Source: Formosa sp. Hel1_33_131 (GTDB lineage: Bacteria; Bacteroidota; Bacteroidia; Flavobacteriales; Flavobacteriaceae). From it: a stretch of DNA of 32,000 nt. A program made the translations under genes and the position numbers. Numbering within the stretch: the stretch's first letter is position 1; each line of letters starts with the position of its first letter. This document shows positions 1,294 through 20,003 of this stretch, piece by piece. A model generated the notes under the pieces. It was not told the origin of the DNA. It saw only the letters and a program-made list of their open reading frames with translations, and did not search any database. The stretch is from contig NZ_CP017260.1 of the NCBI RefSeq assembly GCF_001735745.1, forward strand, positions 870,001 through 902,000. The letters are read 5' to 3'.

Positions 1294-1411
1294 TCGAGTC
1301 TAATGTTTTTACAAATATCTGAATTTTTAGACAACTACAACGTTTTCGTTGCTATTTTATTAGATAATTTTAAAACGCTTTTGAGTATCTTTGAATTTGC
1401 AAATACAAACA

Positions 1412-1894
1412 ATGAACTATCACATTAGAAAAGCAGTAACAAGCGATATGAAACAAGTTTTAGACTTGATTACAGAACTCGCCATTTTTGAAAAAGAACC
1501 CGATGCCGTTGAAGTCACAGAAGCGGACTTAATCGCCAAAGGATTTGGAGACAGTCCCGAGTTTGATTGTTTTGTGGCAGAATCCGATCAAAAAGTAATT
1601 GGGATTGCGTTGGTTTATACCCGGTTTTCAACATGGAAAGGCACCGTGTTGCACTTAGAAGATTTGATTGTTTCGGAAAGCGTACGGGGTCACGGCGTTG
1701 GATCGGCTCTCTTAGATCAAGTGATTATTTATGGAAATGAAAAAGGCGTCAAGCGCGTCTGTTGGGAAGTCATTGATTGGAATACCCCAGCCATTGATTT
1801 TTATGAGCACAAGGGCGCCCGTGTGATGCGCGACTGGAATGTTGTGCAGTTAGACGCTCAAGGAATTAAAAATTATATCTCAAACATAAACTGA
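1412..1894 (+). CDS. GNAT family N-acetyltransferase, SSAT/diamine acetyltransferase-like
   Basis: GNAT motif A (VRGHGVGSALL) and the SSAT-like tail DWNTPAIDFYEHKGA. ATG at 1412 is preferred over the track's TTG at 1391. The stop overlaps the next start (cTGATGc at 1892-1896). Confidence 0.85.
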   Translation: MNYHIRKAVTSDMKQVLDLITELAIFEKEPDAVEVTEADLIAKGFGDSPEFDCFVAESDQKVIGIALVYTRFSTWKGTVLHLEDLIVSESVRGHGVGSALLDQVIIYGNEKGVKRVCWEVIDWNTPAIDFYEHKGARVMRDWNVVQLDAQGIKNYISNIN

Positions 1895-3144
1895 TGCAGT
1901 TATTTAAATTTGGTGGTGCTTCCGTAAAGGATGCAGAAGGAGTCAAAAATTTAGCCCATGTCTTATCGACTGTTGGCTACAGCAATACACTGATTGTGGT
2001 TTCGGCCATGGGAAAAACGACCAATGCCATGGAAACGGTGATTGCAAATTATTTTGATGCCAAACACCAATTGCAAAGCTCCTTACAAGACATTAAAAAA
2101 TTCCACAACAATATTCTCCTCGATTTATTTGAGAATGAACAACACCCCGTATTTGAAACGGTTGACAACTTATTTCAAGAAATTGTGCTATTTTTTGACC
2201 ACAACAAATCGCCCAACTACAACTTCGTATATGACCAAGTTATTGGGTTTGGAGAGTTGATTTCTACCACAATTATCAGTCATTATTTAAACAAAATTGG
2301 CATCACAAATACTTGGTTGGATGTAAGGACGTTTATAAAAACCGACAATTATTATCGAAATGCCAAAGTGCATTGGAACCAAACACAAGAGTTAATTTCA
2401 ACCCATGTGGACACTTCAAAATTAAACATCACTCAAGGATTTCTGGGAAGTGATTCTAACAACTTTACAACCACTCTTGGGCGTGAGGGGAGCGATTATA
2501 CCGCCGCAGTGTTTGCTTATTGTTTAAATGCGAATACAGTGACCATTTGGAAAGATGTCCCAGGGGTTCTCAATGCCGATCCTCGTTATTTTGAGAATGC
2601 AGAGTTATTGCATCAGATTTCCTATACTGAAGCTATTGAGCTTTCTTATTATGGCGCGTCTGTAATTCACCCCAAAACGCTGCAACCCCTACAGCGCAAA
2701 GAGATTCCTTTGCATGTCAAGTCCTTTTTAAACCCAGAGAATGAAGGTACTACCGTTGGAAAAGATTTGACTCTGAACCCAAAAGTGCCTTGTTATATTT
2801 TAAAAAATAATCAAGTTTTAATTTCACTTTCATCACTTGATTTCTCATACATCGTCGAAGATAATATTAGCCATATCTTTAGTTTACTACACGATTACAA
2901 GATGAAAGTCAGCATGATTCAAAATTCAGCGATTAGCTTTTCAGTGTGTATAGAAAATAACTATGACAATCTGGAACGCTTGTTATTACATTTAAAGGCA
3001 AAGTATAAAGTGTCGTCGCACAAAGCGGTTAATCTCTATACTATTAGACATTACAACCAACAAGCAATCCACGACATGGAAGCCGAAAAAGAAATTCTTT
3101 TAAAGCAAATCACTCCCGAGATCGTACAGATTATAACCAAGTAA
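1894..3144 (+). CDS. lysC: Aspartate kinase
   Basis: 416 aa. N-terminal kinase motif KFGGASV...VVSAMGKTTN, a TTLGREGSDYTA block and C-terminal ACT-like region. Confidence 0.9.
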   Translation: MQLFKFGGASVKDAEGVKNLAHVLSTVGYSNTLIVVSAMGKTTNAMETVIANYFDAKHQLQSSLQDIKKFHNNILLDLFENEQHPVFETVDNLFQEIVLFFDHNKSPNYNFVYDQVIGFGELISTTIISHYLNKIGITNTWLDVRTFIKTDNYYRNAKVHWNQTQELISTHVDTSKLNITQGFLGSDSNNFTTTLGREGSDYTAAVFAYCLNANTVTIWKDVPGVLNADPRYFENAELLHQISYTEAIELSYYGASVIHPKTLQPLQRKEIPLHVKSFLNPENEGTTVGKDLTLNPKVPCYILKNNQVLISLSSLDFSYIVEDNISHIFSLLHDYKMKVSMIQNSAISFSVCIENNYDNLERLLLHLKAKYKVSSHKAVNLYTIRHYNQQAIHDMEAEKEILLKQITPEIVQIITK

Positions 3145-3164
3145 GTAACTATTTAATCCTAAAA

Positions 3165-5003
3165 ATGATTAAATTTGTATCAGACCCCCAAAATATGAGT
3201 ATCGTAACCCCCAAAGAAATTGCGAAGGCCATTAAAGTTGATACCTATGGATTTATCGGTACTTTTTTAGGCTGGATCTTGATGAAGGTATTGAAGATTT
3301 CTACGATTAACAGAATCTACAATCAGAACAAGCACAAAAGCGATCTTGAATTTTTAAACGGCCTTTTATCCGATTTTCAAATTCGATTTGAAATTCCCGA
3401 AGAAGATTTAAAACGACTCCCAAAAGACGGCGCATACATCACGGTTTCCAACCATCCCTTGGGTGGAATAGATGGCATTTTATTGTTAAAATTAATGCTT
3501 GAACAACGCAGCGATTTTAAAATCATCGCAAATTTTTTATTGCACCGCATTGAACCTTTAGTCCCGTACATCATGCCGGTAAATCCATTTGAGGATCACA
3601 AAGATGTCAAATCGAGCATCGCTGGATTTAAGAATTCCTTGTTACATTTACAAAACGGTCACCCCTTAGGAATATTTCCAGCGGGTGAAGTCTCTACCTA
3701 TAAAGATGGAAAATTAGTGGTTGATAAACCTTGGGAACCTGCCGCCATGAAACTGATTCAACGTGCCGAAGTGCCTATTGTACCCATTTATTTTCATGCA
3801 AAAAACAGTCCTTTGTTTTACCGCCTCTCAAGACTGAGTGCCTCACTGAGAACTGCCAAACTTCCCTCTGAATTGTTAACCCAAAAGAAGCGTGTGATTC
3901 GAGTGAGAATCGGAAAACCGATTAGTGTCAAAGATCAAAAAGAGCACGGGACTTTAGATGCCTTTTCGGACTTTGTCAGACGAAAAACCTATATGCTTTC
4001 AAACTCTTTTGAAAAGGCTAAAATCTTAACAAATATTTCCTCGAGTTTAAAAGTGACCAAGTCTCCAAAAAAAATTGTGACGCCTGTTCCAACAGATGTT
4101 ATGTGTGCTGAAGTCGCGACCTTAAAAGCCGAAGACCACCGCCTTTTAACGAGTAAAAACTACGAAGTGTATTTGGCACCTGCGGCTAAACTCCCAAACA
4201 TCTTACACGAAATTGGACGCTTGCGTGAAATCACGTTTAGAGAAATTGGAGAGGGCACCAACAAGGCGATTGACTTGGACACTTTTGACAGTTATTACCA
4301 CCACATGTTTTTGTGGGATGCAGAAGCAAAGTGCCTTGCAGGTGCATACCGAATGGGCTTAGGAAGTGAAATTTTTGAAGCTAAAGGCATTGATGGATTT
4401 TATCTACAAGACTTGTTCCGTTTTGAACCGGAACTCCACAGCATGATGAGCCAGTCTATTGAATTGGGTCGTGCCTTTATTATTAAAAGCTACCAACAAA
4501 AACCAATGCCGTTGTTCTTACTTTGGAAAGGAATTGTGCACAGTACACTGCGCTTTCCAGAACATAAATATTTAATTGGCGGCGTAAGTATCAGTAATCA
4601 ATTTTCAAATTTCTCAAAATCCTTGATGATTGAGTTTATGAAATCGCATTACTACGATCCGTATTTGGCGCAGTACATCCACCCAAAGAAAGAGTTTAAA
4701 GTGAAGCTGAAAGATGCTGACAAAGATTTTGTATTTGATGCCACGGCAGCTGATTTGAATAAGTTTGATAAAATTATTGATGAAATTGAGCCAGGAGCGT
4801 TGCGAATGCCCGTGCTCCTCAAAAAATACATCAAACAGAATGCCCATCTGATCGCTTTTAATGAAGACCCCCTTTTTAACAATGCCGTCGATGGACTGAT
4901 GTACATTCGTATTGCAGACCTTCCCGATAGTACCGTGCGTCCTGTGATGGAAGAATTTCAAGCAGAACTGGAACGCAAGTATGGACCTTCGGAAGATGAA
5001 TAA
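3165..5003 (+). CDS. Fused PlsC-type O-acyltransferase / GNAT-like N-acyltransferase (OlsF-like aminolipid synthase)
   Basis: 612 aa. The N-terminal half has the HX4D acyltransferase motif (NHPLGGIDG) and FPAGEVS. The C-terminal half resembles the OlsB/hemolysin-like N-acyltransferase domain (LREITFREIGEGT). This architecture matches the bifunctional OlsF described in Flavobacterium and Serratia. Confidence 0.6.
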   Translation: MIKFVSDPQNMSIVTPKEIAKAIKVDTYGFIGTFLGWILMKVLKISTINRIYNQNKHKSDLEFLNGLLSDFQIRFEIPEEDLKRLPKDGAYITVSNHPLGGIDGILLLKLMLEQRSDFKIIANFLLHRIEPLVPYIMPVNPFEDHKDVKSSIAGFKNSLLHLQNGHPLGIFPAGEVSTYKDGKLVVDKPWEPAAMKLIQRAEVPIVPIYFHAKNSPLFYRLSRLSASLRTAKLPSELLTQKKRVIRVRIGKPISVKDQKEHGTLDAFSDFVRRKTYMLSNSFEKAKILTNISSSLKVTKSPKKIVTPVPTDVMCAEVATLKAEDHRLLTSKNYEVYLAPAAKLPNILHEIGRLREITFREIGEGTNKAIDLDTFDSYYHHMFLWDAEAKCLAGAYRMGLGSEIFEAKGIDGFYLQDLFRFEPELHSMMSQSIELGRAFIIKSYQQKPMPLFLLWKGIVHSTLRFPEHKYLIGGVSISNQFSNFSKSLMIEFMKSHYYDPYLAQYIHPKKEFKVKLKDADKDFVFDATAADLNKFDKIIDEIEPGALRMPVLLKKYIKQNAHLIAFNEDPLFNNAVDGLMYIRIADLPDSTVRPVMEEFQAELERKYGPSEDE

Positions 5004-5074: not shown

Positions 5075-6238
5075 ATGAAACAAGTTTTCCCCAAGGAAAT
5101 CATTGAAAGCACTGTTGAAACTCACATGTTTCGACATAGCACTAAAAGTAAAGTTATATACCTTATTATTTTACTTTCTGTTATGACTGCTTTAGCCCTA
5201 CTCCCCTTTACCAATATTGATATTTATTCAACCTCCCGCGGGATTATCAAACCTGATAAAGAACGTATTACGATCACGGCACCCATTTCTGGAAAAATTA
5301 ATACCTCGTATTTAAACAATAATATGTTTGTGAAAAAAGGAGATACTTTAGTGTCTTTTGATGCCTCTATAATTGTTGAAAAATTGAGTTTATCAAAGCG
5401 TCAAATTGAAGAAACGACCCTATTTATTCAAGATTTATCTTATATGGTAGGGGCTAAAAAAATAGACCTCAAACAGCTAAAATCTCCTAAATTCCAAAAT
5501 GAGGCTCTTCTTTTTAAACAAAAAGAATACGAACTTCAAACGAAGTTTAAAAAATTAAAACGGGACTTTAATCGTTCTAAAAAACTATTCGACAAAGGCG
5601 TCATTGCAAAGGTGGAGCACGAAAACAAAACACTTGAGTACGACCTTATAAAAAGCAACATTCACCAATTGCACGAGCAGCAATACAATGCATGGCAAGC
5701 GGCACTTACGGACTATAAAACCAAATTAGTAGAGCTTGAAAGTAACGCCTACCAAACCCAACAAAACAGAAACTTATATACCGTGACAGCCCCTATTTCG
5801 GGGACTTTGGTAAGCAGTGTGAGTACGGGACAAAACAGCTATTTGGCTGCTGGGCAAACCATTGCCGAGCTATCTCCTGACACGGAATTGCGAATAGAAT
5901 GTTATGTAAGCCCCTATGACATTGGTTTATTAAAAGTCCATTCCGATGTAAATTTCCAGATAGATGCCTATAATTACAACCAATGGGGCATGTCCAGTGG
6001 ACGTATCACAGACATTGCAAAAGATATTGAATTCGTTGATAACAAAGCGGTTTTTAAAGTGTATTGCAGCATCAACGACGCCCAACTAGCTCTCAAAAAT
6101 GGCTATGTAGGCCCTTTGAAAAAAGGGATGACACTGACCGCAAAATTCAAATTAGCCAACCGAAGTTTATTTGACTTATTATACGACAAAGTGGACGATT
6201 GGATCAACCCAGGACAAAATCAAACCGCTAAGCTCTAA
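5075..6238 (+). CDS. HlyD-family secretion adaptor (bacteriocin/T1SS accessory protein)
   Basis: 387 aa. It has an N-terminal membrane anchor (VIYLIILLSVMTALALL), a lipoyl-like hairpin (APISGKI...GDTL / APISGTL), a long coiled-coil middle and a beta-barrel C-terminus. Confidence 0.85.
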   Translation: MKQVFPKEIIESTVETHMFRHSTKSKVIYLIILLSVMTALALLPFTNIDIYSTSRGIIKPDKERITITAPISGKINTSYLNNNMFVKKGDTLVSFDASIIVEKLSLSKRQIEETTLFIQDLSYMVGAKKIDLKQLKSPKFQNEALLFKQKEYELQTKFKKLKRDFNRSKKLFDKGVIAKVEHENKTLEYDLIKSNIHQLHEQQYNAWQAALTDYKTKLVELESNAYQTQQNRNLYTVTAPISGTLVSSVSTGQNSYLAAGQTIAELSPDTELRIECYVSPYDIGLLKVHSDVNFQIDAYNYNQWGMSSGRITDIAKDIEFVDNKAVFKVYCSINDAQLALKNGYVGPLKKGMTLTAKFKLANRSLFDLLYDKVDDWINPGQNQTAKL

Positions 6239-6250
6239 ACCCTGAAAATT

Positions 6251-6568
6251 ATGAAAAACCTAAAAACACTGGAACGCTTACAGCAATTGCATTTAAGAAT
6301 TAAAAACGAAAATACAGGGGCACCAAAACAATTAGCAGACTTAATGCAAATTAGTCAGCGCTCTGTGTATATACTAATGAATAAGCTAAAGGATTACAAT
6401 GCAGAAATTAGCTACAGTAGGAATAAAGAAACCTATTACTACACGAACGCCTTTGATTTACAAGTGGCTATTTCTGTAACCGTACTAAACGGAGATGAGG
6501 TTACCGAAATTTTTGGTGGCAGTTATTTTTTAGGAGAAAATTTGCACCTTGCAAGGAAGTTGCAGTGA
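6251..6568 (+). CDS. Small HTH-domain protein (putative locus regulator)
   Basis: 105 aa. A helix-turn-helix-like stretch (PKQLADLMQISQRSVYILMNKLKD) sits directly between the HlyD gene and the peptide genes. Confidence 0.5.
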   Translation: MKNLKTLERLQQLHLRIKNENTGAPKQLADLMQISQRSVYILMNKLKDYNAEISYSRNKETYYYTNAFDLQVAISVTVLNGDEVTEIFGGSYFLGENLHLARKLQ

Positions 6569-6683: not shown

Positions 6684-6869
6684 ATGAAACAATTAGAAAA
6701 TTATGGTGTTCAAGCGTTGAACACTGAAGAACTCAAATCTACTGAGGGTGGGTTTTGGCAGTATGTAGTCGCAGGGGCTTTGTATGTCATGTCAGAATGG
6801 GATGACATTTCTGCTGGATTTAATGATGGAATTAATGGTAACGACTACGATTATAATCCCTGTCCTTAA
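6684..6869 (+). CDS. Double-glycine-leader peptide precursor 1 (bacteriocin-type signal sequence)
   Basis: MKQLENYGVQALNTEELKSTEGG|FWQYVV... The leader fits the GG-leader / Bacteroidota bacteriocin-type signal pattern (L-7, E-8, L-12, V-15, GG at -2/-1). A C39-ABC transporter and a HlyD gene are in the same locus. Confidence 0.8.
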   Translation: MKQLENYGVQALNTEELKSTEGGFWQYVVAGALYVMSEWDDISAGFNDGINGNDYDYNPCP

Positions 6870-6875
6870 AACTTT

Positions 6876-7001
6876 ATGAAAGTTAGAAGAAAAAATATAT
6901 TATATATTTTAATTTTAATTTTTCTTTTTGGTTTTTTATCCAATTATGACAAATTAAAAGAGTCATTTATTAAAATTTTAAATTATTTATCATGGAACTA
7001 A
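6876..7001 (+). CDS. 41-aa single-pass mini membrane protein (module family KKNI..FLF..YDxxKE)
   Basis: Hand-translated: MKVRRKNILYILILIFLFGFLSNYDKLKESFIKILNYLSWN*. It starts 7 nt after the peptide 1 stop and overlaps the peptide 2 start. It aligns without gaps to the C-terminus of the 100-aa protein at 7812..8114. Confidence 0.5.
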   Translation: MKVRRKNILYILILIFLFGFLSNYDKLKESFIKILNYLSWN

Positions 7002-7156
7002 TAGAATTAAATAAGAATGAATTACTAAACATTAACGGAGGTGATGAACCAGCATATGGGATAGGATATTATATTGGAGCTGGTCTAAATGCAATTGACG
7101 AGGCTTTAGGAGAGTTTTTCTTTGGAGATCATCCTTGGTGGACTACACATCCCTAA
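6992..7156 (+). CDS. Double-glycine-leader peptide precursor 2 (54 aa, below the ORF-track cutoff)
   Basis: Hand-translated: MELIELNKNELLNINGG|DEPAYGIGYYIGAGLNAIDEALGEFFFGDHPWWTTHP*. The leader has I-4, L-7, E-8, L-12, L-15 and GG. Confidence 0.7.
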   Translation: MELIELNKNELLNINGGDEPAYGIGYYIGAGLNAIDEALGEFFFGDHPWWTTHP

Positions 7157-7174
7157 TTAAAAAAACATAAAGCG

Positions 7175-7683
7175 ATGGCTAGAATTATCTTGTTGTCGCT
7201 TTATATTAAAAAATTAATTAAATTGAGATTACTAATTAACTTCATTTCAGTAATTGTTCTTTTACTAATATTTGAATTTGGCTTTAATCCCCTTTGGGAT
7301 TACTTATATGAAATATTTGATATAAAAAAAACTTCGTTTTATGGAAACGAAAAAACTGCTTTTTTTTATTTTCTATAATAATTATAGCTCCTATCGTTGA
7401 AACACTTGTCTTTCAAGTTTTAATTAAATATTTACTAGACTTCACATCTTTACGAAGCATCCAAAATAAAATTATTTATTACTCTATTATTTCTGGAGTG
7501 TTATTTGGCTTAACTCATAACTATTCGATTGTTCACATTATAAAAGCAACAATAATGGGGGTGATTTTCATGCTTTTTTATCTTAAAACATTGAACAAAA
7601 AAAAACTTATGATAACCATTATTTATATTTCAACAACACATGCTTTTTGGAATTTGTTTGTTTGGTTTTGCAGAAATATTTAA
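7175..7683 (+). pseudogene. CPBP/Abi-family intramembrane protease-like (bacteriocin-immunity-type) gene, interrupted by a frameshift at a T8 run
   Basis: ORF 7175..7378 supplies the N-terminal TM helices and ends ...EKTAFFYFL*. The frame 2 nt ahead (equivalent to -1) continues from 7360 as FFLFSIIIIAPIVETLVFQ...FGLTH...HAFWN, which gives CPBP motifs 1-3. One extra T in the run at 7360-7367 would fuse the two parts. Confidence 0.65.
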
Positions 7684-7686
7684 AAC

Positions 7687-7794
7687 ATGAAAAATAAAAA
7701 AACTCTTATCATTCTAGCTGGTATTGTACTTTTAGTCATTGGATTTACTTTAGGACGGGCATTCGTTTCCTATATGTTGGATGCATTAGGGTAA
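7687..7794 (+). CDS. 35-aa single-pass mini membrane protein
   Basis: Hand-translated: MKNKKTLIILAGIVLLVIGFTLGRAFVSYMLDALG*. It starts 4 nt after the CPBP stop and has the same basic-N-terminus plus TM layout as its neighbours. Confidence 0.4.
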   Translation: MKNKKTLIILAGIVLLVIGFTLGRAFVSYMLDALG

Positions 7795-7811
7795 ACACGA
7801 AACAACAAATC

Positions 7812-8114
7812 ATGAAGAAAAAAATATTCTCAAGTTTTTTTATTGCTTTAGGTCTAATTTACATAAAAAGTGCCTTAACACCCTTGATTTGTATTGATGA
7901 ACCCAAAGACTATGAACTTTTTTTTGGTTGGAAAACCACAAAAAATATATTTATTCTTGTAAAATTAGTCATAGGAGTACCGCTCGTCATCTTCAATGTA
8001 AAAGAATTATTGAAACATAAAAACACCAAAAAAAACATCATTTATCTAGTTCTATCCCTATTCCTTTTTGGATTACTCGGGTACTATGACCGCATAAAAG
8101 AATTATTATTTTAA
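7812..8114 (+). CDS. 100-aa membrane protein built from about three mini-TM modules
   Basis: Three basic-patch + TM + KE-tail units: MKKKIF..., KTTKNIFILVKLVIGVPLVIFNVKELL and KKNIIYLVLSLFLFGLLGYYDRIKELLF. Confidence 0.6.
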   Translation: MKKKIFSSFFIALGLIYIKSALTPLICIDEPKDYELFFGWKTTKNIFILVKLVIGVPLVIFNVKELLKHKNTKKNIIYLVLSLFLFGLLGYYDRIKELLF

Positions 8115-8123
8115 AAAAATATT

Positions 8124-8231
8124 ATGAAAAAACCATACAAAAAAAACATCTTCATTATTGCATTAACGTTTCTGTTCTTTAGCTATTTATTTTCTCATTG
8201 GGACTGTTTCAAAGAAGGATTAGGAATTTAG
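8124..8231 (+). CDS. 35-aa single-pass mini membrane protein (same module family)
   Basis: Hand-translated: MKKPYKKNIFIIALTFLFFSYLFSHWDCFKEGLGI*. Its last 10 codons form the left copy of the 32-bp direct repeat. Confidence 0.5.
   Translation: MKKPYKKNIFIIALTFLFFSYLFSHWDCFKEGLGI
8199..8230. repeat. Left copy of a perfect 32-bp direct repeat (TGGGACTGTTTCAAAGAAGGATTAGGAATTTA)
   Basis: The identical 32-mer recurs at 9997..10028. Confidence 0.9.
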
Positions 8232-8465
8232 AAATTACGCATTCTCTAGCACTGTCTTTATTTACACATTAATTACATAAACTCGTTGTGCATTTTAATG
8301 AAATTCGTCAGTTCGAGTGGATTTTACGATTGAAAATACAAGGGATAGTAGTCCCCCGTCTTTTTTAGGGGCTTTATCTATTTTTTTGAGTATGCCAACC
8401 TTAAATTTTGTACAGTTTCAATATGTAGTTTTAGACAACCCAATTATTATTGGTTTCTCTTTTTA

Positions 8466-8519
8466 TCGGATATTATATCCGACATTTATCCGACATTTAG
8501 TATCGATATCCGACATTTA
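8466..8519. repeat. 17-bp palindrome (TCGGATAT-T-ATATCCGA) followed by three copies of ATCCGACATTTA
   Basis: Palindrome at 8466-8482. The 12-mer copies lie at 8477-8488, 8488-8499 and 8508-8519, and the last contains the stop codon of the minus-strand gene. Confidence 0.85.
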
Positions 8520-9851
8520 AATCAATAAATACTTTGTTCCTTTTTTCTCGCCAACCTTCTTTATAACTCTATATTCAATCAATTCATTTAAATCTCTCAA
8601 AGCGGTTCTATCTGTTATTTCAAATAGGTTTTGATATACTCCAGTTGTAATTTGGTTATTCTCTTTTAAATATTCAATTGCTTTTAATTGTCTTTCATTC
8701 AAAAATAAAGATGATAAGAACTCTGGACTGGTTCTGTTTTTATATAAAGTAATAGCAACACCACCTGTCAACTCTTCAATTTTAGGTTCAAGTAATCCTG
8801 CTTTTTCACATTCTTCAATAATTTTAATTGTTCCACGCCCCCAAGATTCTACAAAGCCTGCTCTAAAAAATGTTCTTGCAATAATTGGGTTTCTAGTCAT
8901 AGATTTATGGTCTACTTTTAATTTTTCAGGAGTTAATGGATTTAATAGCTCTCCCTGATTCCAAAACATAATTCGGTCAGGATAAACACTAATTTGTATT
9001 GGAGAATTTTCATAAGTTCTATGGGTAAACGCATTTAGTAATATTTCTCGAACTGCTTCGTATGGATATTCATAGGTTTCAATTCTTTGAATTCCCTTGT
9101 AACTAATAGAGCTGTCTATAAATCTTGTAAATAGAATTTTAAGTGTTTCATCAAGTTGTTCAAAGAGATTTCCTTCTTCCACAACTTCTTGAGAAAGTAA
9201 TTCTGAACTTGATTTTCCAAATTTTCCAATCTTAAGAAAGGAACTCACATAAAACCTCAAAGGTTGTATCCCAAATAGCAAGATTGCTGACCTAGTTAAT
9301 TTCCCTTCATTCATTATCAATAAATTCTGAAAAATAGTTTTTGAATCAAGGTTCACTGTTTCAAGCGGTAGCCTTTTGGAAGCAATACCAGACTTAACAA
9401 ATCGTTTTACCGTAGCTTCATTAATATCGTCAAAAGATGCATTTTCTTCTTCAATACTATCCCAAGTCCTCCCCGTTTTTCTTAACAAAAATTCAGTCAG
9501 TTCATTTCCTCGAAGTTCTTGATTGGTACTGCCAGAACGGTAATAATATTTTCCGTTATATGAAATACCATTATTATAGGGTTTGGTAATAATCTCTATA
9601 TAGTATAAGTCGTTTTCCTCATGTAAATTAACATCACAAAGCACGCCAAGTTTACTAGAAATTTTATTCGGCAACTCGTCCATGAGTTTTGTATACTTAT
9701 CGACCCCCACTACATTTCCAATATCATCTTTTCCAATATACAAGACACCTCCGTTGGAATTGGCAAATCCACTAATCCATTGCAGATATTCATCTCGCCA
9801 AGATTGTTTCCATTCTATGTTTTGTTGTTCGGGCATATTATTATATAACAA
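8517..9851 (-). CDS. AlbA_2 (Schlafen-like) / HATPase_c_4 / C-terminal wHTH protein (often mis-annotated as a RecG-like helicase)
   Basis: 444 aa. N-terminal IEWKQSWRDEYLQWISGFANSNGGVLYIGKDD (AlbA_2 signature), central REILLNAFTHRTY...PDRIMFWNQG (HATPase_c_4-like), and a C-terminal winged-helix region (ITTGVYQNLFEITDRTALRDLNELI). Confidence 0.8.
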   Translation of the reverse strand: MLYNNMPEQQNIEWKQSWRDEYLQWISGFANSNGGVLYIGKDDIGNVVGVDKYTKLMDELPNKISSKLGVLCDVNLHEENDLYYIEIITKPYNNGISYNGKYYYRSGSTNQELRGNELTEFLLRKTGRTWDSIEEENASFDDINEATVKRFVKSGIASKRLPLETVNLDSKTIFQNLLIMNEGKLTRSAILLFGIQPLRFYVSSFLKIGKFGKSSSELLSQEVVEEGNLFEQLDETLKILFTRFIDSSISYKGIQRIETYEYPYEAVREILLNAFTHRTYENSPIQISVYPDRIMFWNQGELLNPLTPEKLKVDHKSMTRNPIIARTFFRAGFVESWGRGTIKIIEECEKAGLLEPKIEELTGGVAITLYKNRTSPEFLSSLFLNERQLKAIEYLKENNQITTGVYQNLFEITDRTALRDLNELIEYRVIKKVGEKKGTKYLLI

Positions 9852-9996
9852 ATATCTTAAAATTAAAGGTATGGTAATTAAATAAATGTAGGTTTATTTA
9901 GTTCAATAATTATTTTAATCTTGAGTGTCTTTATTTATTACCAGAGAAAACGTAAATATCATGAAAACTAAAATCTAAAATATATTATCATTCTAG

Positions 9997-10028
9997 TGGG
10001 ACTGTTTCAAAGAAGGATTAGGAATTTA
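9997..10028. repeat. Right copy of the 32-bp direct repeat, attached to a decayed mini-gene remnant (9961..10028)
   Basis: Identical to 8199..8230. It is preceded by ATGAAAACTAAAATCTAA...TAG, a stop-riddled 5' part. Confidence 0.9.
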
Positions 10029-10100
10029 ATCTCTAAAAAAACCTACAGTGCACTTTTTTTGCAGTGAAGTCGATTACTATTGCTTGTAAACGCATTTATC

Positions 10101-12254
10101 ATGGCTTCCATAAAAATAAAACAACACGACATTACCGATTGTGGTGCCGCCTGCCTTGCCTCTATTGCTGCGCACTACCATCTAGAGCTGCCCATTGCGC
10201 GTATTCGTCAATATGCAGGCACTGACAAAAAAGGGACTAACGTTCTTGGACTCATAGAAGCCGCAGAAAAACTAGGGTTTGAGGCCAAAGGGGTCAAAGG
10301 TGTTTTAGACAGTCTTTTTAAAATTCCCAAACCAGCCATCGCTCATATTATTGTAAAAAAGAAACTGCACCATTATGTAGTCATTTATGGTGTTTCCAAA
10401 AGCCACATCACGGTTATGGATCCTGGTACTGGAAAGATAGACAAAAAAACACATGAGGCATTTCTTGAAGAATGGACAGGGGTACTCGTCATTTTACAAC
10501 CTAATGAAACCTTTAAGAAAGGAAATGACAAAATCTCTGTTTACAAGCGATTTTGGTTTTTACTCAAACCTCATAAATTTGTGTTGGCACAAGCCTTTTT
10601 TGGCGCCATCGTATATACCTTATTGGGGTTTTCTACTTCTATATACATTCAAAAAATAACGGATTTTGTGCTCGTCAGTGGAAACACAAAATTACTGAAT
10701 TTATTGGGTGTTATCATGTTAGGGTTACTGCTGCTCCAATTTGTTATTGGCATCTACAAAGATGTTTTTCTCATCAAAACAGGACAACAAATTGACGCCC
10801 GACTCATATTAGGTTACTACAAACACCTTCTCAAATTGCCACAGTCCTTTTTTGATACCATGCGTGTTGGAGAAATCATTTCACGGATCAATGATGCAGT
10901 GAAAATTAGAACTTTTATCAATGGCGTTTCCTTATCCCTGACCGTGAATGTTCTCATTCTCTTATTTTCATTTGGGCTGATGTTTTTCTATTATTGGAAA
11001 CTAGCGCTTATCATGTTGCTCGTCATTCCTGTATATGCAATGATCTATTTTATCATCAACCGCTTAAACAAAAAAGTAGAACGGAAACTAATGGAACAGG
11101 GCGCAGAGTTAGAAAGTCAACTCGTGGAATCGCTTAATGCCGTAAGTACTATCAAGCGTTTTGGATTGGAAGACTTTGCTAATATAAAAACGGAAACCAA
11201 GTTTATCAATTTACTTAAAATTGGGTATAAATCTGCTTTGAACTCTGTGTTTTCAGGCACAAGTTCATCATTTGTAGCGCAACTATTCACTATCATTTTG
11301 TTATGGACAGGATCCTATTTTGTAATAGACAGAGAAATTACAGCTGGAGAGTTATTGTCTTTTTATGCGATAATCGGTTACTTCACAGGGCCCGCAGCAA
11401 GCCTTATTGGAGCCAATAAACAAATTCAAAACGCTCTTATTGCTGCAGATCGACTGTTTGAAATTATGGATTTGGAACGGGAAAGCTCAGAAAACAAAAT
11501 TTCGCTAACGCATGAAAAAATTGGGGATATAAACTTCAACAATGTCAGTTTCAGGTATGGAACGAGAGTACAAGTTTTTGAAAATTTTAATCTCAAAATT
11601 TCAAAGGGTGAAATAACCGCGATTATAGGAGAAAGTGGTTCTGGAAAATCAACTCTTATGGCGTTACTGCAAAACGTTTATAAAATTCAAAAAGGACAAA
11701 TTAGCATCGGAGGTTTAGATATCAATTATATAGACACAAACAGTTTAAGAAACATCATAAGCGTAGTACCTCAAAAAATTGATTTGTTTGCCGGAAATGT
11801 CATTGAGAATATTGCCGTTGGTGACTTTAACCCAAATATGGAACACATCTTAGGAATTTGTAAGTCAATAGGGATTTTAGATTTTGTTGAAAATCTTCCA
11901 AATGGATTTGAAACATATCTAGGCGAGAATGGGGCCTCACTTTCTGGCGGTCAAAAACAACGTATCGCTATCGCAAGAGCATTATATAAAAATCCCGAGA
12001 TTTTAATCTTGGACGAAGCAACATCTTCACTAGATAGCAAATCAGAAAATTATATTCAAAAGACAATTCTATCTATGCGAGAGAAACACAAGACAGTGGT
12101 CATTATTGCGCACCGATTAAGTACAATTGTGAATGCTGACAAAATTATTGTTTTAGATAAAGGAACCGTAGTTGAAAGTGGCACACACACAGACCTGTAC
12201 AAACAAAAAGGGCGGTATTATGAATTGTGGCAGGCGCAAAGCCCATTGCTTTAA
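10101..12254 (+). CDS. Peptidase C39 domain-containing ABC transporter (GG-leader processing exporter)
   Basis: N-terminal C39 domain (QHDITDCGAACLASIA; HHYVVIYG; MDPG), a six-TM ABC membrane domain, Walker A GESGSGKST, signature LSGGQKQR and Walker B ILILDEATS. ATG at 10101 is preferred over TTG at 10080. Confidence 0.95.
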   Translation: MASIKIKQHDITDCGAACLASIAAHYHLELPIARIRQYAGTDKKGTNVLGLIEAAEKLGFEAKGVKGVLDSLFKIPKPAIAHIIVKKKLHHYVVIYGVSKSHITVMDPGTGKIDKKTHEAFLEEWTGVLVILQPNETFKKGNDKISVYKRFWFLLKPHKFVLAQAFFGAIVYTLLGFSTSIYIQKITDFVLVSGNTKLLNLLGVIMLGLLLLQFVIGIYKDVFLIKTGQQIDARLILGYYKHLLKLPQSFFDTMRVGEIISRINDAVKIRTFINGVSLSLTVNVLILLFSFGLMFFYYWKLALIMLLVIPVYAMIYFIINRLNKKVERKLMEQGAELESQLVESLNAVSTIKRFGLEDFANIKTETKFINLLKIGYKSALNSVFSGTSSSFVAQLFTIILLWTGSYFVIDREITAGELLSFYAIIGYFTGPAASLIGANKQIQNALIAADRLFEIMDLERESSENKISLTHEKIGDINFNNVSFRYGTRVQVFENFNLKISKGEITAIIGESGSGKSTLMALLQNVYKIQKGQISIGGLDINYIDTNSLRNIISVVPQKIDLFAGNVIENIAVGDFNPNMEHILGICKSIGILDFVENLPNGFETYLGENGASLSGGQKQRIAIARALYKNPEILILDEATSSLDSKSENYIQKTILSMREKHKTVVIIAHRLSTIVNADKIIVLDKGTVVESGTHTDLYKQKGRYYELWQAQSPLL

Positions 12255-12349: not shown

Positions 12350-13429
12350 ATGCCTTTTTCACCCAATTACACGATTACAGTTGCTATTGCACAAAATTTA
12401 GTGGCCATTGAAACTGGTAAAAAACAATTTGAATCGATTCCTATGAACGCGATGCTCTTAAGCTCGCTACGTAAATCCGCACGATTGGCCTCGACGCACT
12501 ACTCCACTCAAATAGAAGGAAACCGTTTAACGATGGAGCAAGTTACAGATGTTGTTTCAAAAAAAGCAGAGGGATTTCCTGGACGGGAACGCGATGAAAA
12601 AGAGGTGGTCAATTATTACAAAGCGTTAGAATATCTTGAAACAAAAAATAACAAGCCATTAACCGAAACAACCATTCAAACTATACATGGATGGGTTTTA
12701 AGTGGTAGAAAGAGCGCAAGCGCGTATAGAGAAGGTCAAAACGTAATTAAAGATGGATTGTCGGGCGCTATTGTTTATATGCCCCCCGAAGCTTCAGAAG
12801 TGAGTGGTTTGATGAAAGCACTTGTTTCTTGGATTGACATCTCTTTAAAAAAGGGAAAAATTCCGGTCCCTATTATAGCTGCATTGGCACATTATCAATT
12901 TGCGAGCATACATCCCTACTATGATGGAAACGGAAGAACAGCTCGCTTGATTACCAACTATATTTTACATTATGGGGGCTATGGACTGAAGGGCATCTAT
13001 TCTTTGGAAGCTTATTATGCAAAAAACTTACAGGGCTATTACGATGCTTTGGCTGTTGACGATATTCCCAATTATTATATGGGAAGAGCGGAAGCGGATC
13101 TTACAAATTTTCTGGAATATTTTATGAAAGGAATGGCGATTTCTTTTACGAACATTGTGGCATCATCAAAAGAAAATAGCAGCCCATCACTACAAGACAA
13201 CAGCAAAACATTAAGAGAGTTATCTGCCAAGCAACGCATGGCTTTGGATCTATTTGTAAACCAAAAAGAAATTACGAATACTGATTTAGCACAGCACCTA
13301 GGTATTTCTAAAAGGAGTGCTGCCACTCTGCTAAAAAAATGGTTGGAAAACGAATTCCTTATAATTGGAAATCCTTCCAATAGAGCACGATCGTATCGAC
13401 TCAACCACAAATGGGAACAATTATTTTAA
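12350..13429 (+). CDS. Fic/DOC family protein, class II (N-terminal inhibitory helix), with a C-terminal wHTH
   Basis: Fic motif HPYYDGNGRTARL, inhibitory motif STQIEGN ([S/T]xxxE[G/N]) near residue 52, and a C-terminal HTH (ITNTDLAQHLGISKRSAATLLKKW). Confidence 0.9.
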   Translation: MPFSPNYTITVAIAQNLVAIETGKKQFESIPMNAMLLSSLRKSARLASTHYSTQIEGNRLTMEQVTDVVSKKAEGFPGRERDEKEVVNYYKALEYLETKNNKPLTETTIQTIHGWVLSGRKSASAYREGQNVIKDGLSGAIVYMPPEASEVSGLMKALVSWIDISLKKGKIPVPIIAALAHYQFASIHPYYDGNGRTARLITNYILHYGGYGLKGIYSLEAYYAKNLQGYYDALAVDDIPNYYMGRAEADLTNFLEYFMKGMAISFTNIVASSKENSSPSLQDNSKTLRELSAKQRMALDLFVNQKEITNTDLAQHLGISKRSAATLLKKWLENEFLIIGNPSNRARSYRLNHKWEQLF

Positions 13430-14734: not shown

Positions 14735-15670
14735 TTAATGAAAATAGTTGACAATTTTATCAACGATGGTTTGGGCTAATTTTTGGTGACTCTCTACCGT
14801 CCATCCAGCCACATGTGGCGACAACAGTACATTGTCAGCTTTTAGTAGATAATCCAACGCAGGAGGTGGGGTGTTTGAAAACAGATTTTCAAATGATGAT
14901 TTCTCATATTCCAAAACATCCAATCCTGCACCTAATATGGTTTTAGACTCCAACGCAGCTACCAAGTCTTCAGTGACCACACAACTGCCGCGAGCGGAAT
15001 TGAGGAGCCAAAACGGTTGCTTAAATTTGCGGATGAAATTTGCGTCGATCATTTGATATGTCAACTCGGTATGAGGAACATGAAGGCTAATGATTTGGGA
15101 TTTTTCTTGAAGCGTTTCCAATGAAACTTGTTGTGCATTTTCATCACCAACAGTGGGTTTGAGATCGTAACAAAGAACCTCAACCTCAAAACCGCGCAGT
15201 TTTTTAGCAAATGCTTTGCCCATATGTCCATACCCAATAATCCCAACGGTTTTCCCATCGAGTTCAAGACCTCGATTGGCTTCGCGTTGCCATTTGCCAT
15301 CTCGTACATCGCGATCTGCTGTGTGTAGTTTATTAAACAACGCCAACAACATCCCAAGCGCATGCTCTCCAACAGCATTTTGATTGCCTTCAGGGGCGGC
15401 TATTAAATGAATGCCTTTGGTTTCTGCGTAGTCTGTGTCAATATTTTCCAATCCGGCGCCTAACCGACCTATAAATTTAAGGTTGGTGGCTTTGTCTAAA
15501 AAAGGCGCATCAATTCGAAACCGGCTTCTTATAATGAGACCGTCATAGGTGTGTATTTTAGCTTCAATGGCTTCTTTTGAGCTGGAGTAATCTTCGTGAT
15601 TGGTATGTCCTAAAGCGGTTAACTGTTCTATTAATAAGGGATGATTGGAGTCAAGATGTAAGATGTTCAT
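14735..15670 (-). CDS. D-isomer-specific 2-hydroxyacid dehydrogenase (phosphoglycerate dehydrogenase-like)
   Basis: NAD-binding GIIGYGHMG, a catalytic R...E...H pattern (NSARG, LDVLEYE, SPHVAG). Confidence 0.85.
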   Translation of the reverse strand: MNILHLDSNHPLLIEQLTALGHTNHEDYSSSKEAIEAKIHTYDGLIIRSRFRIDAPFLDKATNLKFIGRLGAGLENIDTDYAETKGIHLIAAPEGNQNAVGEHALGMLLALFNKLHTADRDVRDGKWQREANRGLELDGKTVGIIGYGHMGKAFAKKLRGFEVEVLCYDLKPTVGDENAQQVSLETLQEKSQIISLHVPHTELTYQMIDANFIRKFKQPFWLLNSARGSCVVTEDLVAALESKTILGAGLDVLEYEKSSFENLFSNTPPPALDYLLKADNVLLSPHVAGWTVESHQKLAQTIVDKIVNYFH

Positions 15671-15671
15671 C

Positions 15672-17042
15672 TTAAATATTTAGGATGAGTTTAGCGATCG
15701 AAAAGTAAATCAGTATTCCAAAAATATCATTGCTCGTTGTGATAAACGGGCCTGTTGCAATCGCAGGGTCAATTCCTTTTTTGTGAAGAAATAACGGAAT
15801 AAAGGTTCCTATAATTCCAGCGACAATAATGACAACCACTAGGGATGAGGAGATTGCTAAAGCGGTGCGCACATCTTGTTTCCAAACCCATACAAAGAAA
15901 AATAAAAACAGGGCTAAAATGACCCCATTTAGGGCGGCTAAAAACATTTCTTTTATAAGACGGTGATTGACACTTCCTCTCACCTCATCATTCGCCAAAC
16001 CTTGCACAATAATCGCAGACGATTGAACACCTACATTCCCTGCCATGGCGGCAATGAGGGGCGTAAATAATAAAATCAAGGGGAAATCATCAATGATGGT
16101 TTCAAATCCACCCATGATGATGGCGGCTCCAACGCCTCCCAAAAGACCTAAAAACAACCATGGCAAGCGCGCACGGGTGAGATCGAGAATACTATCTTCC
16201 GCATCCACATCTTGTATAATACCTGCAGCAAGCTGGTAATCTTTCTCCGCTTCTTCAATAATAACATCGACAATATCATCAATGGTAATACGCCCTAAAA
16301 GGACATTTTCATCGTTGATGACGGGGACGGCTTCTAAATCGTATTTGGCCATTAATTTGGCAACTTCTTCGGCATCTTCATCCAGGTGAACTGAATCTAC
16401 CTTTGGAATATAAATATCTTTTATTTTGGTTTCGTTATCGGCAATCAAAAGGTCTTTGAGCGATAAGCGCCCCATCAGTTTTTCTTCTTTTGAAACCACA
16501 TAAATAGAATGCACCCGCTTGACTTCTTTGGCTTGAGCTCTGATTTTACGTAAACAGCCTGCGACCGTCCAAGTTTCATAAACCTTCACCAGTTCTTTTG
16601 CCATCAGTCCACCCGCAGTATCCTCATCATAAGTCAATAATTCTTGAAGATTCGCAACCAGCTCCTTGTCGTCCATTTGGGCGATTACTTTTCGCTTACG
16701 TTCAGGAGATAAATCGGCCAATAAATCGGCGGCATCATCAGAATCTAGCTCTTGAATTTCTTCAACAATTTCTTTAATCGAAAGATTTTGAAGTACTTTT
16801 TCACGAACATCATCTTCCAATTCTGCTAAAACATCTGCAGTTGTTTCGCTGTCTAAAAGTTTAATGATATAGGTGGCTTGATCTAAATTTAGATCGTCTA
16901 GAATTTCAGCAATATCCGCATAATGTACATCTTGTAATTGCTCCAAAATGGCTTTATCATCCTTCGAATCAATGAGTCCATTAAGGACATCGATTAAGGC
17001 CTCGGTGATCTCAAAAGGGATATGTTCCTTGTTTTCTTCCAA
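15672..17042 (-). CDS. mgtE: Magnesium transporter MgtE
   Basis: 456 aa. N-terminal MgtE_N acidic domain, tandem CBS domains and a C-terminal 5-TM channel (PFITTSNDIFG). It has a TTG start 2 nt after the rsmA stop. Confidence 0.92.
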   Translation of the reverse strand: MEENKEHIPFEITEALIDVLNGLIDSKDDKAILEQLQDVHYADIAEILDDLNLDQATYIIKLLDSETTADVLAELEDDVREKVLQNLSIKEIVEEIQELDSDDAADLLADLSPERKRKVIAQMDDKELVANLQELLTYDEDTAGGLMAKELVKVYETWTVAGCLRKIRAQAKEVKRVHSIYVVSKEEKLMGRLSLKDLLIADNETKIKDIYIPKVDSVHLDEDAEEVAKLMAKYDLEAVPVINDENVLLGRITIDDIVDVIIEEAEKDYQLAAGIIQDVDAEDSILDLTRARLPWLFLGLLGGVGAAIIMGGFETIIDDFPLILLFTPLIAAMAGNVGVQSSAIIVQGLANDEVRGSVNHRLIKEMFLAALNGVILALFLFFFVWVWKQDVRTALAISSSLVVVIIVAGIIGTFIPLFLHKKGIDPAIATGPFITTSNDIFGILIYFSIAKLILNI

Positions 17043-17044
17043 AA

Positions 17045-17827
17045 TTAAATGGGTTGTTGATCGGTTTCTATTGCTAATGTCAATTCTATAAACGCCTGTA
17101 CACTCAGTTGTTCAGGACGCTTGTCAAAGATAGTATTTGCTTTTAAATTATCCGATAAATTATAGGTTTTTAAACTATTTCTCAAGGTTTTACGACGTTG
17201 TTGAAACGCAGATTTGACCACTCTAAAAAATAATTTCTCGTCACAAGGCAAAGAATAGTCTGCTTTTCTTGTCAATCTTAAAACTCCAGACTCCACTTTT
17301 GGTGGGGGAACAAACACCGATGGCGGCACCGTAAATAAATATTCTGCTTCGTAAAATGCCTGTACCAATACGGATAAGATGCCATATACTTTACTGCCTT
17401 CTTTTTCGCAAATGCGCTGTGCCACTTCTTTTTGAAACATCCCTGCAAATTCAGGAACTTGATCTCTATTCTCTAAAGTTTTGAACACAATTTGTGTCGA
17501 AATATTATAGGGGAAATTTCCAATAATCGCAAAAGGACGCGTTCCAAAAACACTGCTAAAATCGTACTTCAAAACATTTTCTTGAATGATTCGAGGGGCT
17601 AAATTCAAGAAATTTGCTTGTAGGTATTCTACCGATTCTGGATCAATTTCAATCGCATAGGTGGTGATTGGTTTCTTTAAAATATACTTGGTCAAGACGC
17701 CCATTCCAGGCCCTATTTCCAAAACATCTTTATACCCCTCCAACGTTAAAGCATCGGCAATTTGCTGCGCGATCATTTCATCGTTAAGAAAGTGTTGTCC
17801 TAAGTGTTTTTTTGGTTTTACGATCAT
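17045..17827 (-). CDS. rsmA: 16S rRNA (adenine1518/1519-N6)-dimethyltransferase
   Basis: [12 protein letters not shown] motif VLEIGPGMG, and GNFPYNIST. Confidence 0.93.
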
Positions 17828-18151
17828 TTAGTGCGTGCTTACAGTATATTCATCAATCCATTCTAATTCCGTTCTAAAGGCTAACATTTTATCTCCAAAC
17901 TTCTGCAATCCTTCCGCTTGAAAATCAGCTGCATACTGTTCGTGATACGATTCCAAAGCTTCTTTTGAGTGGGCTAAATACTGAATTGAATAGGTCAATC
18001 CCCCCATAGATTCTTCGACCAAAACTTTTGTAAACGTTGCTTTTAAAAAGAATCCAGTCGCCAGTACTTTTGGAATGTGTTCCTTGATCCACAACAACCA
18101 TTCTTCATGAATGCTGTCCTCAATATTGGCGGTTACGTTGTAAATTATCAT
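17828..18151 (-). CDS. DUF4286 family protein
   Basis: 107 aa. It abuts rsmA with zero spacing, a conserved neighbourhood in Flavobacteriia. Confidence 0.55.
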   Translation of the reverse strand: MIIYNVTANIEDSIHEEWLLWIKEHIPKVLATGFFLKATFTKVLVEESMGGLTYSIQYLAHSKEALESYHEQYAADFQAEGLQKFGDKMLAFRTELEWIDEYTVSTH

Positions 18152-18168
18152 TGGTTAATTTGTTGTCA

Positions 18169-19950: not shown

Positions 19951-20003
19951 CAAGGTGTTTTTGTAACTGTAATTAAATGCCCAGAACTGAATCGAGGCGG
20001 TCA

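Follow-up and report, generated by a model that had tools for sequence, protein, structure and literature searches.

In a 32-kb window of the Formosa sp. Hel1_33_131 chromosome (the window being the whole 32,000-nucleotide stretch that was analyzed), a locus for the export of double-glycine (GG)-leader peptides contains several genes for miniature transmembrane (TM) proteins. Copies of one module, present in the proteins p41 and p35b and in the C-terminal third of p100, represent a family, here termed family A, that is real, large, and uncatalogued in marine Flavobacteriia. Sequence profiles show the module to share homology with an exported GG-leader peptide, termed alpha, in its mature part, a relationship that was missed in the initial annotation of this DNA. 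Homology to an exported peptide turns a generic idea of immunity into a specific mechanistic hypothesis, in which family A proteins would be immunity proteins that act as membrane-anchored mimics of alpha, a reading to which we give moderate preference. More tentatively, the immunity gene may have been derived from the toxin gene, with the leader giving way to a Lys-rich anchor and the small-residue helix to a bulky one, and with arrays, fusions, and orphan copies tracking the circulating toxin alleles.

The open reading frames (ORFs) quoted in the initial annotation are present with the sequences given there: p41 (41 aa), p35a (35 aa), p100 (7812–8114, 100 aa), and p35b (35 aa), the 100-residue sequence of p100 being identical to FORMB_08060. 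Pairwise similarity was scored as z against composition-preserving shuffles. The p41 protein reached z = 11.3 against the C-terminal module of p100 and 4.6 against p35b, and the latter two reached 5.3 against each other, identifying the three as true paralogues within a single family. The earlier statement that several ORFs share one module thus holds for these copies, on both shuffle tests and profile matches, and the reported 13 of 26 ungapped identities between p41 and the p100 tail were confirmed in a recount by hand. A search profile built from the window copies and from those in a divergent metagenomic relative (L007 in our numbering of related loci) matched exactly three places within the window, namely these same three, all on the + strand.

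The profile was also run on all stop-to-stop ORFs, in six frames, of 80 Flavobacteriia loci that had been retrieved with the ABC protein (L008–L087; 1.4 Mb). All 17 matches lie on the strand of the ABC gene and within about 2 kb of it. The significant new matches, first in L008, L014, L015, L024, L045, L055, and L078 and later in L032, L058, and L070, extend to at most about 0.7 kb on the upstream side and 2 kb on the downstream side, and the best reversed-sequence decoys gave E = 0.019 and 0.14. Random matches in AT-rich DNA, lacking frame or linkage, had been named as the outcome that would speak against the module; the matches are instead linked in strand, lie near the ABC gene, and stand apart from weak decoys. 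Together with gene order, the 80-locus search also bears out the proposed linkage of the module genes to GG-leader peptides and a C39-ABC exporter, in the slot where class II bacteriocin and microcin immunity genes reside. Small size, TM character, and a position next to GG-leader genes and a C39-ABC/HlyD exporter are the criteria by which microcin immunity genes are picked, and more than one immunity gene per locus is also found in microcin loci (PMC12219008).

Family A extends well beyond these loci. A word-indexed search with a 15-sequence profile returned 27 small proteins, and a full HMMER pass with a 21-sequence profile over 1.84 billion representatives returned 123 clusters at 50% identity (E ≤ 1e-3), nearly all of 35–60 aa. 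The members, typically of about 35–50 residues, follow a common plan, in which a Lys-rich N-terminus precedes one bulky-hydrophobic TM helix (hydrophobic stretch of about 17–25 residues), with a conserved interfacial core right after the helix. In subfamily A2, which includes p35b, the core reads [IF]SDW[EDSG][HND]FK[AEDQ]GL[FLM]G, and many members add a KPPVE-like tail. The smaller subfamily A1, with the core NYDxxKELLF, comprises p41 and the p100 module and is also found in L014, L091, and L130. The pattern [SN][DHY][WY]xx[FIL]K following the helix, by which family A was delimited, is present in p41, p100 residues 69–100, and p35b (E from 1e-9 to 1e-15) and absent from p35a, p100 residues 1–68, and positions 9961–9996. 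Hydropathy and flanking charge mark the proteins as small TM proteins of the kind seen in the immunity class; the N-terminal flanks have a net charge of +3 to +4 and the C-terminal tails 0 or −1, except in p41 (+1), and the N-terminus is predicted to be inside and the C-terminus outside. When 74 members were scanned together with the proteins of the window, the mini-proteins exceeded the cut-off of none of the Pfam and NCBIfam models, scattered sub-threshold matches being to unrelated models, in keeping with the earlier remark that the module was not recognized as a described immunity family. The mini genes likewise had no match in PADLOC (proteins) or Rfam (DNA).

The codon record indicates that these are coding sequences. 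Between p100 and L007, 17 synonymous codon changes occur in the coding frame and 2–3 in shifted control frames; third-position and synonymous bias is confined to the annotated frame, and the amino-acid core is kept over differing codons. The region is 28–33% G+C, in which short hydrophobic ORFs arise easily, and truncated copies occur (e.g., L110 7881–7967), both of which would suit an origin of the ORFs as chance products of AT-rich DNA or as decaying leaderless alpha pseudogenes. That origin is nevertheless refuted for practical purposes, its probability being negligible in view of the 123 conserved clusters, the bias in strand and position, the decoy controls, the frame-specific synonymous substitution, and a conserved Lys-rich N-terminus that would not be expected from a decaying alpha gene. 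Members of the family can be overlooked or wrongly called by automated gene prediction, since the public gene call at L007 997–1185 is on the minus strand and the + strand ORF at 1010–1159 is a clear p35b/A2 homologue.

After profile iteration, GG-leader peptides were the next-best matches to family A. When a profile built solely from leaderless proteins was compared with 249 GG-leader mature regions, it matched those of L088 (6e-11), L032 (4e-8), and L070 (2e-7), and further GG-leader versions of the core were found in P0029, P0109, and P0124. The typical alpha peptide follows the pattern ...W.WPI..GA..YE[IV][IV][ST]DW.NFKAGL.G.PP, with the core ending the mature part, and a second GG-leader peptide, beta, typically carries the motif [SC]FAYD[IV]G. 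Alpha, beta, and a leaderless A2 gene, termed I, form a recurring unit beside C39-ABC/HlyD, seen in L130, L118, L110/L120, L103, L114, and L113, and also in L070 and, in the order alpha–I–beta, in L032. The gene order of L130 (ABC protein at 96% identity to that of the window) is alpha, beta, I, A1, an A1 remnant that lacks a start, an orthologue of p35b, and ABC. Adjacent GG-leader alpha/beta pairs are present in the window and in L009, L032, L070, L088, L103, L113, L114, L118, L122, and L130. A metagenome scan on the motif SDWx[NH]FKAG only yielded 44 loci, 19 of them of at least 8 kb; the flanks of 12 of these 19 contain the set of ABC, HlyD, and HTH105 (a conserved helix-turn-helix (HTH)-like protein), which is absent from the other 7.

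Alpha and I of the same locus also resemble each other in their tails, as shown by GHAPIE, present in both L110 genes, by the L113 pair GLNGNCES and GLMGNCVESR, and by GISGGI, which both L032 genes encode. In an exact permutation test over nine loci, treated without correction for ancestry, this co-variation gave P = 5e-5 to 1e-4, and it persists when the comparison is made on the variable part downstream of FKxGL. Because 8 of the 11 codons for identical residues in alpha and I of L130 differ synonymously, the match does not stem from recent gene conversion. The helices differ between the two forms, with G/A/S residues making up 29% in alpha and 10% in I, and bulky residues 38% in alpha and 62% in I (P about 2e-8 for each).

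The core in common with exported alpha would also fit mini-TM proteins that are themselves leaderless toxin components, the third peptide of a weapon, and leaderless bacteriocins exist in Gram-positive bacteria. We consider this very improbable. An N-terminus of +3/+4 ahead of a bulky helix of about 20 residues describes a membrane anchor rather than an amphipathic secreted peptide, lone copies in the core genome would be self-toxic without immunity, and the proteins occur in in-frame fusions to other TM proteins (p100, P0090).

In the window itself, peptide 1 is of a divergent WDD type (SEWDDISAGF) common to L009, L018, and L082. Its core scored z = 4.2 against p35b, and the WDD peptide family aligned with the leaderless family at an hhalign probability of 83% over 17 columns. 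Peptide 2 carries PAYGIGYY, related to [SC]FAYD[IV]G, and the same motif is found in beta of L009, L032, L070, L088, L103, L114, L118, and L130. Scores of alpha and beta against the curated class IIb model TIGR03949 were 20.9 and 20.4 bits, below the cut-off of 21.5 and mostly due to the leader, and Bacteriocin_IIc matches were also sub-threshold. A minimal version of the locus is seen in L009, which consists of alpha (WDD type), a p41-like gene (z = 6.3 against p41), beta, a CPBP gene, and ABC, with the orthologue of peptide 1 at the equivalent position. Because the p41-like gene has its place in this minimal order, p41 is, by position, the cognate partner of the peptide pair in the window. 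The remaining p35a, p100, and p35b are extra cargo of the Formosa lineage.

The model that we favor builds on what the computations show, namely the existence of the family, its paralogy with alpha, its position, the tail co-variation, the helix differences, and the orphan copies. Alpha and beta would be cleaved at the GG site and exported by C39-ABC/HlyD to act as a two-peptide, membrane-active toxin on neighboring cells. The leaderless copies would remain in the inner membrane of the producer, N-terminus in and C-terminus out, with the same interfacial core facing the periplasm. There they would serve as dominant-negative decoys, which either pair with incoming alpha or beta or fill the docking site, such that the active complex is blocked. 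This form of immunity by self-mimicry would be antiholin-like, and the extra and orphan copies would protect against the alleles of other strains. We infer the membrane topology, the toxicity of alpha and beta, and the protection by the leaderless copies.

Several observations weigh against immunity by mimicry. The A2 core is conserved across genera far beyond what is usual for immunity proteins, and a conserved cellular partner is possible. About 7 of the 19 long motif-selected contigs lack a nearby exporter, some copies reside in core-genome contexts, and family A is present in only about 12 of the 80 loci selected by the ABC protein. Shared ancestry may contribute to the tail co-variation among the nine loci. 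The link within the window is weak, with a non-significant E = 0.26 for peptide 1 alone against the leaderless profile and a non-significant z = 0.7 for p41 compared directly with peptide 1; the strong paralogy comes from other loci. Moreover, the bacteroidetocins, which are the only characterized GG-leader toxins of Bacteroidota, are encoded in loci without an immunity protein, and their producers are self-sensitive (PMC6671954). In open-access text, immunity to GG-leader peptides was not found to be addressed for Flavobacteriia in any paper.

Conservation of this kind could instead reflect an accessory or regulatory role, in which the mini-TM proteins would be co-receptors or sensors of alpha in signaling, or modulators of the exporter or of the CPBP protein. 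The SDWxxFKAGL core is strongly conserved over more than 100 clusters and several genera, suggesting a conserved partner; 70–96% conservation is also seen in the ABC protein, p35b-type genes lie directly ahead of the ABC gene in several strains, and the locus includes a conserved HTH-like gene. We regard such a role as unlikely. With the family present in about 12 of the 80 ABC loci, its members are no general exporter subunit, and copies exist far from any exporter. Variation in the tails follows that of the alpha peptide rather than that of the ABC protein, and copy number differs among close strains, which is typical of arms-race genes rather than machinery. Mimicry of alpha in the service of immunity remains the preferred reading.

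Three of the assignments made in the initial annotation required revision. The p100 protein had been described as three fused modules, yet only its C-terminal third belongs to family A; the N-terminal segment scored z < 0 and was ruled out as a module copy, and the middle segment was marginal (z about 2). Since residues 1–68 belong to a separate family C, which exists as stand-alone proteins of 63 and 70 aa in L014 and of 73 aa in L091 and is weakly matched by a 75-aa protein of L024 whose gene overlaps a module gene, these comparisons identify p100 as a fusion of a 2-TM family C protein with one A1 module. In L055, a stand-alone gene in the immunity slot encodes 32 aa that the middle segment resembles (z = 3.8, p = 0.005), and a third module type is thus a weak lead in favor of the earlier description. 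In the pattern of hydropathy and charge, the basic linker KHKNTKKN is on the cytoplasmic side of p100, and the fused module is therefore predicted to retain its own N-in/C-out orientation.

The second revision concerns p35a, which had been taken for a looser relative of the module. With z about 1 and a profile E about 1, it falls into a separate conserved family B, defined by the motif GFT[FL]GRAFVS[YF].LD.LG and conserved in L005–L008, L014, L091, L128, L135, and L136. A resemblance of p35a to GG peptide 2, as its mimic (GFTLGRAFVSYMLDALG versus GYYIGAGLNAIDEALG), is unsupported (z = 1.2, p = 0.13), and a family B profile had zero matches among GG-leader peptides. A conserved, soluble-looking protein of 135–137 aa (M.[EK][RK]DYL[LM]R...) is encoded upstream of family B/A genes in L007 (164–577), L135 (7137–7550), and L101 (1150–1557) and is absent from the window.

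The CPBP/Rce1-like gene next to p35a is split by a 1-nt deletion in the poly-T run at 7360–7367, which is T8 in the window and T9 in the near-identical metagenome contigs L001, L002, and L004, where an intact CPBP protein of 169 aa is encoded. The frameshift may stem from a sequencing error, mark a pseudogene specific to this strain, or act as a slippage switch. In the first catalytic motif, a degenerate VETLVFQ stands in place of EExxxR. The mini-proteins gave no match to the Rce1-like domain (EExxxR, FxxxH, HxxxN), which is matched by this neighbor; the CPBP/Abi family has been linked to bacteriocin immunity. In the N-terminal part of the CPBP protein (7175–7378), a stretch resembling the module, FGFNPLWDYLYEIF, comes after the first TM helix, with the counterpart FGLSPIWDFLNNVLE in L009 (2615–3079). 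The similarity of p41 to this stretch reached z = 3.3 among 21 comparisons, without profile support, and may be due to chance or may hint at the same interfacial motif in the protease.

CPBP genes are frequent neighbors of family A, as might be expected if the mini-TM proteins were pro-peptides, from which the CPBP protein or signal peptidase, cutting after the helix, would free a C-terminal SDW...G signal or toxin. The Lys-rich N-terminus and hydrophobic stretch resemble a signal-anchor, an ASA motif precedes the core in a few members, and many end in a hydrophilic KPPVE-type tail. Such processing is improbable, given that the putative cleavage motif is unconserved, that many copies are without a CPBP neighbor, that the window's CPBP protein is both degenerate in its first motif and frameshifted, and that the hydrophobic stretch is of TM length, not signal-peptide length.

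The module had been portrayed as expanding and fusing, with which chimeras, a tandem fusion, and variable copy number (1 to 4 profile-matched leaderless copies per locus in close relatives) are in agreement. In L005/L006, a 99-nt deletion between two AAAAAAAACATC repeats swaps the p100 module for that of p35b, creating a 102-aa in-frame chimera; the deletion is the derived state, because the two genes are still separate in L007, a more distant relative. Other combinations include the N-terminus of a family B protein joined to an A2 tail (L127 1393–1539, …GRAFVSYWDCFKNGLGI), two modules in tandem (P0090), and the N-terminus of an HlyD protein fused to an A2 module (P0087).

Orphan copies are found at the same chromosomal site and elsewhere. 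The window flanks (1391–5003 and 14735–21275) were compared with L091/L092, which have the window's flanking genes (an acyltransferase gene and, on the other side, genes for a 2-hydroxyacid dehydrogenase and MgtE) and represent the syntenic chromosomal site. At this site, the entire export island is replaced in L091 (5404–6102) and L092 by just four genes for small membrane proteins, a 57-aa ORF and genes of families C, B, and A1, without an exporter or a GG-leader peptide, and L128 is another variant. L014 has the C–B–A1 trio as well, on the downstream side of its ABC gene. A lone A2 gene is located between the rimP-nusA-infB operon and a gene for a large membrane protein in L106, L116, and L133.

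Positions 6684–8231 constitute the variable cargo region of the peptide-export locus, the order being HlyD, HTH105, cargo, and C39-ABC (Table 1). In related loci, the HlyD-type gene is kept at the left border of the variable region, and HTH105 always follows HlyD. In L008, L130, and L135, an orthologue of p35b is immediately ahead of the ABC gene. Translation of the ABC exporter likely starts at the ATG at 10101 (MASIKIKQHD). The C39-ABC protein is 70–96% identical across many genera of Flavobacteriaceae and also in Roseivirga and Nafulsella, other Bacteroidota, which is unusually high for a bacteriocin exporter; the genes carried between HTH105 and ABC, by comparison, are hypervariable (window, L008–L087).

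Table 1. Features of the peptide-export locus and its surroundings (window coordinates)
Feature	Position	Strand	Basis or remark
HlyD-type membrane-fusion protein of exporter	5075–6238	+	Pfam HlyD_3 5e-15
HTH105, 105-aa conserved HTH-like protein, possible regulator	6251–6568	+	weak HTH_11 and WYL matches
GG-leader peptide 1, alpha slot, mature part FWQYVVAGALYVMSEWDDISAGFNDG...	6684–6869	+	GG leader; sub-threshold TIGR03949 match
p41, family A mini-TM protein, subfamily A1 (NYDxxKExxF)	6876–7001	+	profile E about 1e-9; FORMB_08020; on 51 contigs
GG-leader peptide 2, beta type (PAYGIGYY)	6992–7156	+	GG leader; sub-threshold class IIb matches
CPBP/Rce1-like intramembrane protease gene, split here	7175–7683	+	Pfam Rce1-like 6e-9, second frame
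p35a, family B mini-TM protein (GFTLGRAFVSYMLDALG)	7687–7794	+	distinct from family A
p100 residues 1–68, 2-TM family C moiety (DYELFFGWKT)	7812–8015	+	free-standing homologues elsewhere
p100 residues 69–100, fused family A1 module (KKNIIYLVLSLFLFGLLGYYDRIKELLF)	8016–8114	+	profile match; shuffle tests
p35b, family A2 mini-TM protein (HWDCFKEGLGI)	8124–8231	+	profile E = 1.8e-15; FORMB_08070
32-nt direct repeat, left copy (3' end of p35b)	8199–8230		
1766-nt insertion	8231–9996		carries Schlafen/AlbA_2 + HATPase_c_4 + HTH gene (8517–9851, minus strand)
32-nt direct repeat, right copy	9997–10028		
C39-peptidase ABC exporter	10080–12254	+	Pfam Peptidase_C39, ABC_membrane, ABC_tran
Fic-domain gene, directly 3' of exporter	12350–13429		PADLOC SoFic defense model 5.5e-52

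The decayed copy of the module that had been reported at 9961–10028 turned out to be mainly the right copy of the 32-nt repeat, and the profile misses the remainder (9961–9996). The right copy exactly repeats the last 32 nt of p35b, and the site is empty in L005, L008, L130, and L135; in L005, a single repeat copy and the ORF stop are directly followed by the ABC upstream region, and L006 contains the left junction of the insert. The exact repeat and the empty sites in relatives mark 9997–10028 as the duplicated target of the 1766-nt insertion, which is not part of the peptide system. Its Schlafen-like gene has partial PADLOC matches to pAgo-associated models, and neither a recombinase gene nor an Rfam match was found within the insert. 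The SoFic-type Fic gene and the Schlafen-like insert suggest that the island also collects defense genes.

With regard to known systems, the closest functional class for family A would be the small inner-membrane proteins that confer immunity to class II microcins and bacteriocins, which are likewise small TM proteins encoded adjacent to, and co-oriented with, GG-leader genes and a C39-ABC/HlyD exporter. Family A proteins have no sequence relation to the curated families of this class, are smaller (33–50 aa, with a single TM helix), and are homologous to the toxin-like peptide itself. Such homology is not known to have been described for any class II immunity protein, though no exhaustive search was made. 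In mechanism, the closest parallel would be the holin/antiholin pair, as in S105/S107 of phage lambda, where inhibitor and effector are almost identical membrane peptides; an extra N-terminal positive charge fixes the topology of the antiholin, which is thought to form dead-end hetero-oligomers. Here, in contrast, the two forms are separate genes, the effector is exported by way of a GG leader, and there is no sequence relation, so the analogy is confined to mechanism.

Three further kinds of system bear on the locus. PlnI and SkkI are bacteriocin immunity proteins of the CPBP/Abi (Rce1-like) type; a CPBP gene is part of the same cargo region here (intact in L001), with the mini-proteins as a separate component. 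In class IIb (two-peptide) operons and the hypervariable bacteriocin-immunity region of the pneumococcal blp locus, two GG-leader genes are followed by a gene for a small membrane protein, and the resemblance includes small-residue-rich peptide helices, strain-variable cargo between conserved export genes, and orphan copies elsewhere. The present host, however, is a Gram-negative member of the Bacteroidota, and its peptides match class IIb models only below threshold and mainly in the leader. The bacteroidetocins are, like alpha and beta, Bacteroidota GG-leader peptides with a C39-ABC transporter (PMC6671954, PMC8546649), but their loci differ in encoding a 5-TM protein and a thiol oxidoreductase, and the peptides are unrelated in sequence to those described here.

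Little is known of bacteriocin-like warfare in Bacteroidota outside the gut, and family A represents abundant, uncatalogued proteins of about 40 residues from marine bloom-associated Flavobacteriia. The mechanism proposed for them is concrete and testable, in that the core of the toxin would be copied in a protective protein anchored to the membrane. If it is true, family A would be the first immunity family described for Bacteroidota GG-leader peptides, and the search for immunity genes could follow a simple rule, which is to seek the leaderless paralogue of the peptide. It would also mean that a toxin and its antidote can evolve from one gene, and the co-varying tails would provide a handle for the engineering of specificity.

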